This document shows, piece by piece, positions 5,505 to 5,698 of a stretch of 28,677 bases of DNA. The first letter of the stretch is position 1. The number at the start of each line of letters is the position of its first letter. Source of the stretch: an uncultured Terrimonas sp. (GTDB taxonomy: Bacteria; Bacteroidota; Bacteroidia; Chitinophagales; Chitinophagaceae); contig CAZGSG010000029.1 in the NCBI GenBank assembly GCA_964528095.1, positions 1-28,677 of the forward strand, read 5' to 3'. The notes beneath the pieces are model-generated. The model saw only the letters and a list, made by a program, of their open reading frames with translations, made no database searches and was not told the origin of the DNA. The translations under genes and the position numbers were made by a program.

Positions 5505-5698
5505 CGCTCTTTAGCATAAAAGGAAGTGCTGCGGAAAAAGTTACGGAGCCGTGGAGTGACCGGATAAGCCGTTCGGGCTGCTCGCCCGGATGGATAGAAT
5601 TTGCAGAAGCACCGAAATCTGGAAGGAAAGTAGGGAAGCGCATTTACAGCCGGACTATTGTTGTAAACAAAGTATGGGTTCGAATCCCATAAGAGCGG
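5505..5698 (+). ncRNA. Candidate ~194 nt tRNA-like ncRNA. The 5' cgctctt pairs with the 3' aagagcg. A D-arm-like hairpin (agca-N10-tgct) follows the 5' strand and a canonical T arm (atggg-ttcgaat-cccat) precedes the 3' strand. No anticodon arm.
   Basis: Found by hand. Internal GC hairpin cgggc-tgctc-gcccg at 5575-5589. Boundaries and identity are uncertain. Confidence 0.3.

Follow-up and report, generated by a model that had tools for sequence, protein, structure and literature searches.

The stretch of DNA analysed here (hereafter the window; 28,677 nucleotides (nt), positions 1 to 28,677 of contig CAZGSG010000029.1, assembly GCA_964528095.1) comes from an uncultured Terrimonas sp. of the Chitinophagaceae and contains an operon in which a divergent WYL regulator gene is followed by two RNAs, here named RNA-1 and RNA-2, a Band-7 gene and rtcB, in this order. 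RNA-1, the subject of this study, occupies 5505-5698 on the + strand (194 nt) and is a genuine, conserved non-coding RNA gene whose structure is supported by covariation. It joins a 7-bp acceptor stem, a D arm and a T arm, which form the top half of a tRNA, to a conserved folded domain of 125 nt that replaces the anticodon arm and comprises a hairpin with a 14-nt loop and a multi-helix domain of about 100 nt.

The acceptor stem is formed by the two ends of RNA-1 (all RNA-1 elements below are on the + strand). Its 5' strand (5505-5511, tRNA positions 1-7) pairs with 5691-5697 (positions 66-72), after which come the discriminator G73 at 5698 and the trailer CAG. The exact complementarity of CGCTCTT and AAGAGCG, with the 3' strand right after a perfect T arm, had been pointed out in an earlier note on this DNA and is confirmed by the sequence. 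Canonical tRNA numbering fits the 5' part with zero indels: U8 (5512) and A9 (5513) are followed by a D stem, GCAU/GUGC (5514-5517/5526-5529), in which G10-U13 pair with G22-C25, and by U26, the whole segment spanning 5512-5530. The D loop AAAAGGAA carries A14, A15, G18, G19 and A21; the D-stem pairs covary, and U8, A14, G18, G19 and A21 are invariant. On the 3' side, U48 stands directly 5' of the T stem, and the T arm AUGGG-UUCGAAU-CCCAU (5674-5690, tRNA positions 49-65) shows covariation in four of its five pairs, matches the T arm of the transfer-messenger RNA (tmRNA) model and has a loop, GTTCGAATC, that is nearly invariant in the 21-sequence alignment described below. The acceptor and elbow features of the tRNA family (RF00005) are all present in RNA-1, namely the 7-bp acceptor stem, U8, A14, G18 G19 and T54 Psi55 C56.

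The position of the anticodon arm is taken by a hairpin termed H3 (5530-5553), with 5 bp that show covariation and a 14-nt loop that contains a conserved AAAAG. This loop measures 10-16 nt in the relatives and contains AAAAG in every sequence of the 21-sequence alignment, and the motif recurs in all three divergent sequence groups introduced below. Since its loop is of this size, H3 is not an anticodon loop, and the 5-bp/7-nt anticodon arm of tRNA is not present in RNA-1. Behind H3 lies the inserted domain (5558-5655), closed by a covarying long-range helix of 6 bp, GACCGG/CCGGAC (5558-5563/5650-5655). It contains a covarying 10-bp hairpin (5569-5593), a stub hairpin (5604-5609) that is expanded to a 7-bp hairpin in loci L012 and L010, and a short variable hairpin (5618-5628). 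Two strands, UUUG..GCACCGAAA (5600-5617) and AGUAGGGAAGCGCAUUU (5629-5645), form an invariant core found in Bacteroidota-like, phage-like and high-GC sequences; within it, the pair G5603-C5641 is replaced by A-U in six sequences, and C5613-G5633 has one compensatory change. Beside a 2-bp helix of the core, GAA (5614-5616) stands opposite AGUA (5629-5632) in what looks, from its sequence, like a sarcin-ricin/loop-E motif, a common platform for protein binding. A further small hairpin, resembling a class II variable arm (5658-5670), lies 3 nt 5' of the T arm; its four pairs all covary, with UUGC/GCAA replaced by CCC/GGG closing a GNRA loop, and it is 4-5 bp long in relatives. Three structural claims of the earlier note are refined by this model. 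Its D-arm-like hairpin, agca...tgct, is a real D arm but was drawn with one extra A-U pair; its GC-rich hairpin, cgggc-tgctc-gcccg, is present but is only the tip of the 10-bp hairpin; and its statement that an anticodon arm is missing holds for the loop, but not for the arm position, which the 5-bp hairpin H3 does fill.

Folding of the single sequence gave a minimum free energy of -57.6 kcal/mol and kept the terminal helix and the D hairpin, yet with z = -1.5 this is ordinary for the base composition, so that the single sequence alone proves nothing. Comparison with related loci (L001-L080) is decisive; these are the best 80 of 313 relatives of the WYL regulator in a species-level genome collection and are recorded as Bacteroidota in all but one case, mainly as Chitinophagaceae. 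A BLAST search with 5505-5698 returned full-length matches of 70-86% identity in 20 of these 80 loci, invariably close upstream of the WYL gene, on the strand opposite to it, and the similarity starts and stops at the acceptor stem, that is, at tRNA positions 1 and 73 of RNA-1. The structure was derived from an alignment of 21 sequences with RNAalifold, and the curated model has 47 pairs. In this alignment 97.5% of the cells are paired, compared with 32-44% after a shift of the 3' partners by 1-3 columns; double changes occur in 32 of the 47 pairs, and none of 500 shuffles matched the observed covariation. A larger alignment of 99 sequences (89 distinct), biased towards the structure because it was fitted to a covariance model, gave 96.3% paired cells and compensation in 42 of the 47 pairs, again with no match among 500 shuffles. 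The terminal helix is conserved in the relatives and covaries in all seven pairs. Together with the full-length similarity in 20 other loci, this bears out the view of the earlier note that pairing of the ends by chance was improbable; its proposal of an acceptor/T-arm mimic with a large insertion stands as well, as terminal helix, D arm and T arm all covary. The core of the insert is the most conserved part of RNA-1, and it was already invariant in the 21 sequences, which were gathered independently of any core pattern.

Three open reading frames (ORFs) of 143, 104 and 51 amino acids (aa) overlap RNA-1, and none has a Pfam match at E<=0.1. Moreover, indels in the insert do not come in multiples of three, indicative of no conserved reading frame there, and 5505-5698 is thus an RNA gene rather than a protein-coding one. 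A tmRNA-like tag starting at GCA in UUUGCAGAAGCACCG was considered and ruled out, the stub hairpin varying in length by 5, 6 or 18 nt. With these indels, and with no tmRNA call by ARAGORN, the absence of an SsrA-type tag ORF that had been noted before holds, and the insert, whose length had rightly been judged insufficient for a group I intron, is a structured domain under conservation.

Rfam 15 was scanned at gathering scores over the whole window and at E<=10 over 5300-6300, as had been proposed for this element. Neither scan assigned a family to 5505-5698; the only trace was a tmRNA T-arm fragment, for which the tmRNA model (RF00023) scores 12.1 bits against a gathering score of 47. The tRNA model did not reach its gathering score at 5505-5698, and ARAGORN called neither a tRNA nor a tmRNA there. 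Scans of one high-GC and one phage member at E<=10 likewise gave no family beyond the T arm of tmRNA, apart from a tRNA match to the phage member, which the model spans end to end at 28.1 bits (gathering score 29). The Pedo-repair motif (RF01715) was also considered, as a Bacteroidetes RNA with a possible link to repair; it is a radC leader confined to Pedobacter sp. BAL39 and is unrelated to RNA-1.

Searched with a covariance model of the family, R1, the 80 loci yield 21 copies of full length (160-224 bits) besides the window copy, and one shortened copy of 157 nt in L062 (3579-3735, - strand; 54 bits). In the latter, acceptor stem, D arm, H3, small hairpin and T arm are all retained, but the conserved core seems to be missing; this copy is possibly a natural deletion mutant of the family. 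Beyond these loci, the exact core pattern CACCGAA N8-38 TAGGGAAGCGYATTT was found in at least 120 metagenome contigs and three IMG/VR contigs, and a slightly relaxed core in 36 IMG/VR contigs, three of them already known from the exact pattern and many 100-512 kb in length. By R1, the tRNA-like frame is complete in 114 of the first 123 contigs and, among the 33 new viral ones, in 24. Metagenome contigs with relatives of RNA-1 number at least 110, and IMG/VR phage contigs about 27; among the tabulated viral members, all seven acceptor pairs are intact in 22 of 24 and six pairs in the other two. Three broad groups can be told apart, Bacteroidota-like (140-225 bits with R1), phage/rumen (72-83 bits) and high-GC (38-58 bits). 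Common to all of them are the acceptor, D and T arms, the hairpin with AAAAG and a core of identical sequence, most of which was required by the scans. When members of the window, phage and high-GC types were compared by BLAST with GenBank phages, and the high-GC member also with PLSDB plasmids, either nothing matched or the matches were confined to the T arms of tRNA genes. Cultured carriers exist, for example Niabella defluvii I65.

Contigs of the phage/rumen group have few long ORFs in the standard code and carry CUA-suppressor tRNAs. Very few ORFs of at least 100 aa are seen in L081, L112, L115, L135 and L083, and L081, L115 and L135 encode a tRNA with a CUA anticodon that ARAGORN labels 'Pyl', which suggests phages with a recoded stop codon. 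Second, weaker R1 matches lie near the main one in L220 (3030-3208), L237 (13957-14132) and L219 (10195-10391); with lengths of 176-197 nt and scores of 25-35 bits, they may be additional oversized RNAs of the tRNA-like type that carry another insert.

RNA-1 is linked to RNA-repair genes and to tRNA arrays. It occurs together with a Band-7 gene and rtcB in more than 12 loci, and the WYL-Band-7-RtcB island arrangement recurs widely, often with tRNA arrays. Among 91 Bacteroidota-type metagenome matches, 51 have Band-7, RtcB or WYL on the same, often short, contig, and in 20 a tRNA gene on the same strand lies no more than 400 nt away; those left over are mainly short contigs. Among the phage/rumen and high-GC matches, a tRNA gene lies within 400 nt in 18 of 23. 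The arrangement varies, the RNA-repair genes being present in independent architectures that differ in their other components. RNA-1 lies between the Band-7 gene and rtcB in L056, with tRNA-Arg and tRNA-Leu on either side; in L095 it precedes rtcB by 100 nt, and in L092 it follows 4 nt behind that gene. The order is RtcR, RNA-1, RtcB and RtcA in L098, and in L136 RNA-1 holds the second place in a 22-tRNA array with a Ro60/TROVE gene behind it, 3.4 kb downstream of RNA-1. Within tRNA arrays it is placed head-to-tail with spacers of 0-12 nt, between tRNA-Phe and tRNA-Cys in L082, between two tRNA-Thr genes in L136, between tRNA-Arg and tRNA-Leu in L056 and before tRNA-Gly in L053. The same head-to-tail placement between tRNA genes is found on the phage contigs L082, L083, L220, L231, L222 and L235.

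The 3' trailer is also like that of neighbouring tRNA genes. The discriminator is A in 62 of 82 distinct family sequences, and it is commonly followed by C and then A. The tRNA genes of the window have N73-CA in four of four cases and those of the related loci in 142 of 218, where C74 is encoded in 92%, the next A in 65% and CCA in none. Some RNA-1 clades encode ACCA or GCCA at the 3' end. The tRNA-like structure, the embedding in tRNA arrays, the 3' trailer, the encoded CCA and the end-to-end match of the tRNA model to one phage member together strongly suggest that RNA-1 is processed by RNase P and 3'-end enzymes.

Elements that mark a tRNA for a particular amino acid are present in part of the family. 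G1-C72, G2-C71, G3·U70 and A73 occur together in at least ten distinct sequences from three groups, with pairs 4-7 varying with compensation; the carriers of G3·U70 are L094, L112, L119 and L083 (phage/rumen), L136, L139, L134 and L098 (high-GC) and L209, L225 and L213 (viral). Taken together, these acceptor elements are the alanine identity set of tRNA-Ala and tmRNA. The high-GC members with G3·U70, and several phage members, also encode ACCA, and in one phage subgroup the stem is lengthened to eight pairs by G-1:C73, as it is in tRNA-His. In the window, however, RNA-1 has C3-G70 and G73, and most Bacteroidota copies have C-G or U-A at 3:70. As the window copy and most Bacteroidota copies have neither the alanine nor the histidine identity, aminoacylation cannot be the family-wide function on present data; from these identity elements, it may matter in some clades.

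Upstream of RNA-1 lie a candidate operator and a candidate promoter. A 21-nt palindrome, CTGTGCAA-N5-TTGCACAC (CTGTGCAAATACATTGCACAC; 5456-5476), is unique in the window, where 0.07 matches are expected by chance. Nearly every Chitinophagaceae locus has the same palindrome some 55 nt upstream of its WYL gene, with repeats before further transcription units, some of them after RNA-1, so we infer it to be the binding site of the divergent WYL regulator. The gene of this putative operon controller (4397-5419, - strand) encodes WYL and WCX domains (Pfam WYL 2e-14, WCX 8e-11; PADLOC WYL 1e-27), and in about half of its best 80 relatives rtcB and/or Band-7 is found within 4 kb upstream. A -7 promoter box of the Bacteroidetes type, TAGGTTTG (5485-5492, + strand), ends 12 nt before RNA-1; the consensus is TAnnTTTG, and nAnnTTTG is kept at this position in the relatives. 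The box implies a transcription start near 5498-5500 and, with it, a probable leader of 5-7 nt before RNA-1, which would be the first product of the WYL-regulated transcript. A sigma-70 promoter scan gave nothing relevant for RNA-1, and no + strand terminator was found in 5300-6400. Downstream on the + strand follow the gene of the Band-7/SPFH protein (6320-7423; Pfam PF01145, 1e-26), 620 nt 3' of RNA-1, and that of the RtcB RNA ligase (7530-8987; Pfam PF01139, 1e-81; NCBIfam RtcB family). PADLOC and NCBIfam assigned only WYL, RtcB and SPFH among the neighbouring genes.

RNA-2 (5745-6075, + strand) consists of a structured 5' domain and two tandem, circularly permuted tRNA-like modules. Module A has a T arm (5887-5905), a closed acceptor-like hairpin and a D arm (5923-5939), and module B a T arm (5953-5969), a closed hairpin, a D arm and a 5-bp/7-nt anticodon-like arm, the triplet of which differs between species. 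RNA-2 is conserved in about 30 loci, with compensatory changes in 52 of 86 predicted pairs. In Rfam it matches YrlA at 5881-5946 with 34 bits (gathering score 69) and tRNA at 5915-5977 with 32.1 bits. It may be the published b7a-tRNA discussed below, or a YrlA-type RNA with Band-7 as its partner in place of Ro60. Directly 5' of RNA-2, the motif AGTTCTTTAnnATATTG (5706-5722, + strand) is kept in most loci, and its first half, AGTTCTTTA, also occurs 5-15 nt upstream of RNA-1 in many other loci. The motif is not recognisable as a promoter and might serve as a signal for processing or for the binding of a protein.

Beyond the regulator gene, the window carries a tRNA cluster (2279-2706, + strand) with a Pro-like gene (2279-2351) missed by ARAGORN and genes for Gln, His and Phe. 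Between this cluster and the WYL gene are an AAA ATPase gene (2726-3802, + strand) and an RNase H-like PF04308 (DUF458) gene (3824-4333, + strand); one or both stand beside the WYL gene, in varying order, in about 45 of the 80 loci. Related islands contain arrays of 7-11 tRNA genes, and 27 of the 80 loci have at least four tRNAs within the 9 kb examined. The cluster and the WYL/RtcB region look like one island joining spare tRNAs with RNA repair. Farther downstream, 14343-28654 is an ordinary polysaccharide biosynthesis and export cluster unrelated to RNA-1, with a NusG/UpxY-like regulator, Wza-like and Wzc-like proteins, dTDP-sugar enzymes, a flippase and glycosyltransferases.

What might RNA-1 do? 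We propose, and give an even chance to, a role as a stable tRNA mimic that is matured like a tRNA and acts with RtcB in an RNA-repair or tRNA-damage response. RNA-1 would be transcribed from the promoter at about 5485-5492, which an operator common to the divergent WYL gene overlaps, and relief of the WYL regulator would induce it; with operator and promoter shared, induction would extend to RNA-2, the Band-7 gene and rtcB. RNA-1 possesses every part of the acceptor stem, the D arm and the T arm, elbow nucleotides included, and would for this reason be excised by the tRNA machinery: RNase P would cut at 5504/5505, and after 5698 the 3' end would be trimmed and completed with CCA. Its tRNA-shaped body would make the RNA stable and open it to enzymes that bind tRNA, the purine-rich core of the inserted domain would bind a conserved partner, and RtcB and/or the Band-7 protein, as putative partners, would be tethered by this domain. 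RNA-1 would in this way serve as a cofactor, scaffold or specificity factor of an RtcB-centred response to tRNA or RNA damage. WYL domains bind nucleic-acid ligands. That the WYL regulator might sense RNA fragments, as the CARF domain of RtcR does (PMC7790460), is only an analogy.

Several points speak against this role. Full RNA-1 is found in only 21 of the 80 WYL loci, and many WYL/Band-7/RtcB loci lack it, so that it is not an obligate part of the operon. About 27 phage contigs and most high-GC members have it in tRNA arrays with neither rtcB nor Band-7 in the sequence examined; the constant companion of RNA-1 is tRNA genes rather than RtcB. The invariance of the core is partly imposed, as the metagenome and IMG/VR scans required most of it, binding to RtcB or Band-7 is conjecture, and RNA-1 is known here from sequence alone. 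A wider proposal, which we regard as tentative and rather unlikely, would make RNA-1 a widespread, uncharacterised class of tRNA-derived RNA that matures like tRNA, is aminoacylated in several clades (Ala or His, with encoded CCA), has exchanged its anticodon arm for a conserved protein- or ribosome-binding domain, has spread through bacterial and jumbo-phage tRNA arrays and through RtcB, RtcR, Ro60 and Band-7 operons, and has a direct role in sensing or repairing the damaged tRNA pool.

Among other explanations, one holds that RNA-1 is an aminoacylated tRNA-like RNA acting at or near the ribosome, charged with Ala or His in some clades and bound by EF-Tu, for rescue, quality control or another aminoacyl-tRNA-dependent reaction; alternatively, charging would protect the 3' end as in plant-virus tRNA-like structures. 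The retention of G3·U70 and A73 in at least ten sequences of three groups while pairs 4-7 covary, the ACCA of these high-GC members and several phage members, the G-1:C73 pair of another phage subgroup and the presence of the family in large phages rich in translation genes all favour charging, the more so as alanyl- and histidyl-tRNA synthetases (AlaRS and HisRS) recognise the acceptor end rather than the anticodon. We nevertheless consider it unlikely, since no identity set is family-wide (C3-G70/G73 in the window, C-G or U-A at 3:70 in most Bacteroidota), neither a tag reading frame nor a tmRNA call by the Rfam model or ARAGORN was obtained, and the genes with which the family is recurrently linked are those of RtcB and Ro60 rather than smpB or ribosomal genes. 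Slightly less probable still is a decoy or sponge for enzymes that attack tRNA (anticodon nucleases, toxin tRNases, phage-defence tRNases), serving counter-defence in phages and protection in bacteria. Such a decoy would fit the co-occurrence with large tRNA arrays in phages and bacterial islands and the WYL regulator of the operon, a class common in defence loci, and a competitive-inhibitor role has been proposed for YrlA's tRNA-like domain (PMC7790460). Yet RNA-1 offers no anticodon loop, the usual target of these nucleases, and its core is conserved across phyla and phages, opposite to what an arms race with fast-evolving toxins would lead one to expect, even if that invariance owes something to the searches.

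Two further explanations were considered. As a cis-acting leader, riboswitch- or T-box-like, it would control Band-7 and rtcB, for which its place in the 5' part of the operon transcript, between promoter and first protein gene, would be suitable. Its ends, however, pair together as in tRNA, 620 nt and another structured RNA separate it from the first ORF, and the terminator scan of the region gave no terminator or expression platform. In other genomes it is a member of tRNA arrays, follows rtcB (L092) or separates the Band-7 gene from rtcB (L056), and several loci have one operator and promoter for RNA-1 and then a second copy for the next gene. A leader is therefore very improbable. Equally hard to credit is an intron-containing tRNA gene or a decayed tRNA pseudogene, the insert being removed, perhaps with re-ligation by RtcB, or being junk. 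The frame is indeed a perfect tRNA top half, and RtcB is the tRNA-splicing ligase of archaea and animals, but the insert is the most conserved part of RNA-1 and sits in the variable region, not in an anticodon loop; its removal would leave a loop of 10-16 nt instead of the 7-nt anticodon loop, and no splicing endonuclease gene was recognised among the scanned ORFs of the window. Covariation excludes a pseudogene.

If the wider proposal were true, tmRNA and Y RNAs would be joined by RNA-1 as a third kind of tRNA-like machine. In any case it offers a testable handle on the cellular role and substrates of bacterial RtcB and on the tRNA-like RNAs of repair operons, through a covariation-backed structure, a small mutable core, a putative operator with its regulator, cultured carriers, and natural variants with or without Ala/His identity elements and encoded CCA. 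Its presence in the tRNA arrays of large phages ties together RNA repair, spare tRNAs and the phage-host conflict over tRNA, and it would add a family missing from Rfam 15.

A full-text literature search found no description of RNA-1. Among known systems, tmRNA resembles it in having an acceptor stem and a T arm around a large structured insert, in the G3·U70, A73 and encoded CCA of some RNA-1 members, and in its occurrence in phage tRNA arrays. In contrast to tmRNA, RNA-1 has a true D stem, neither tag ORF nor pseudoknot series, and about half the length, and the phage contig L081 encodes a genuine tmRNA in addition to its RNA-1 member. RNA-1 was accordingly rejected as a tmRNA, given the T-arm-only model match, no ARAGORN call, no tag frame, and C3-G70/G73 and the trailer CAG in the window. 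The species 1 and 2 RNAs of phage T4 (rnaC and rnaD) are likewise small stable RNAs placed head-to-tail in a phage tRNA cluster, and species 1 ends in a T arm and an acceptor-like strand. With 139 and 119 nt, they lack the conserved core and match only in the tRNA-like part (11.9 bits); we reject them as homologues and regard them as positional analogues.

The sole described entity that RNA-1 might be is the b7a-tRNA, a band-7-associated tRNA-like RNA near Band-7 and RtcB that was predicted by Burroughs and Aravind in 2016, never validated, and said in the one sentence available to us to 'strongly resemble' authentic tRNA (bioRxiv 10.1101/312249). Going by that one-sentence description, RNA-1 may be the b7a-tRNA, as it is a tRNA-like RNA gene near Band-7 and rtcB on the same strand; it differs from such a description in being 2.6 times as long as a tRNA, having no anticodon loop and being missed by tRNA finders. 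The wording fits at least as well the RNA-2 segment that matches the tRNA model, or the tRNA-Tyr-like genes found in the same operon in L056 and L062, in the latter just upstream of the 157-nt variant.

The closest functional model is provided by the Y RNAs and YrlA of rsr-yrlBA-rtcBA operons, and it is from them that the role of RNA-1 as a cofactor or scaffold of an RtcB response is proposed, by analogy with what Y RNAs do for Ro60. YrlA RNAs mimic tRNA and are modified by TruB and DusA, and that of M. smegmatis is cleaved by RNase P and has CCA added to it (PMC4201824). Like RNA-1, YrlA/Y RNAs (RF02553) are non-coding tRNA mimics with a T arm, a D arm and an acceptor-like stem; both belong to RtcB RNA-repair operons with an adjacent scaffold protein and a damage-sensing regulator, and both operons encode two RNAs, yrlB-yrlA in one case and RNA-1 with RNA-2 in the other. 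By contrast, YrlA is circularly permuted, with a loop-closed acceptor and ends that form the Ro60-binding stem, whereas RNA-1 has the normal order and open acceptor ends, a length of about 195 nt and a different conserved domain, and its partner gene in the window is Band-7, not Ro60; no TROVE domain was found among the 20 largest ORFs of the window. The YrlA model does not match RNA-1 but does match RNA-2, the only one of the two with the permuted module. The Ro60-binding motif of Y RNAs, GNCGAAN0-1G, stands near the 5' end (PMC4201824); the RNA-1 core has ACCGAAA (5611-5617), which shares CGAA but not the flanking G residues and is internal, not 5'-terminal. Where the earlier note had offered tmRNA-like or Y-RNA-like as descriptions, the former fails, and the latter is apt for the setting at the head of an RtcB operon beside a YrlA-like RNA. 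RNA-1 thus belongs to a known general kind, that of tRNA mimics attached to RNA-repair systems; it is set apart by its own architecture, its own conserved domain and an unexpected second habitat in the tRNA arrays of bacteria and phages.

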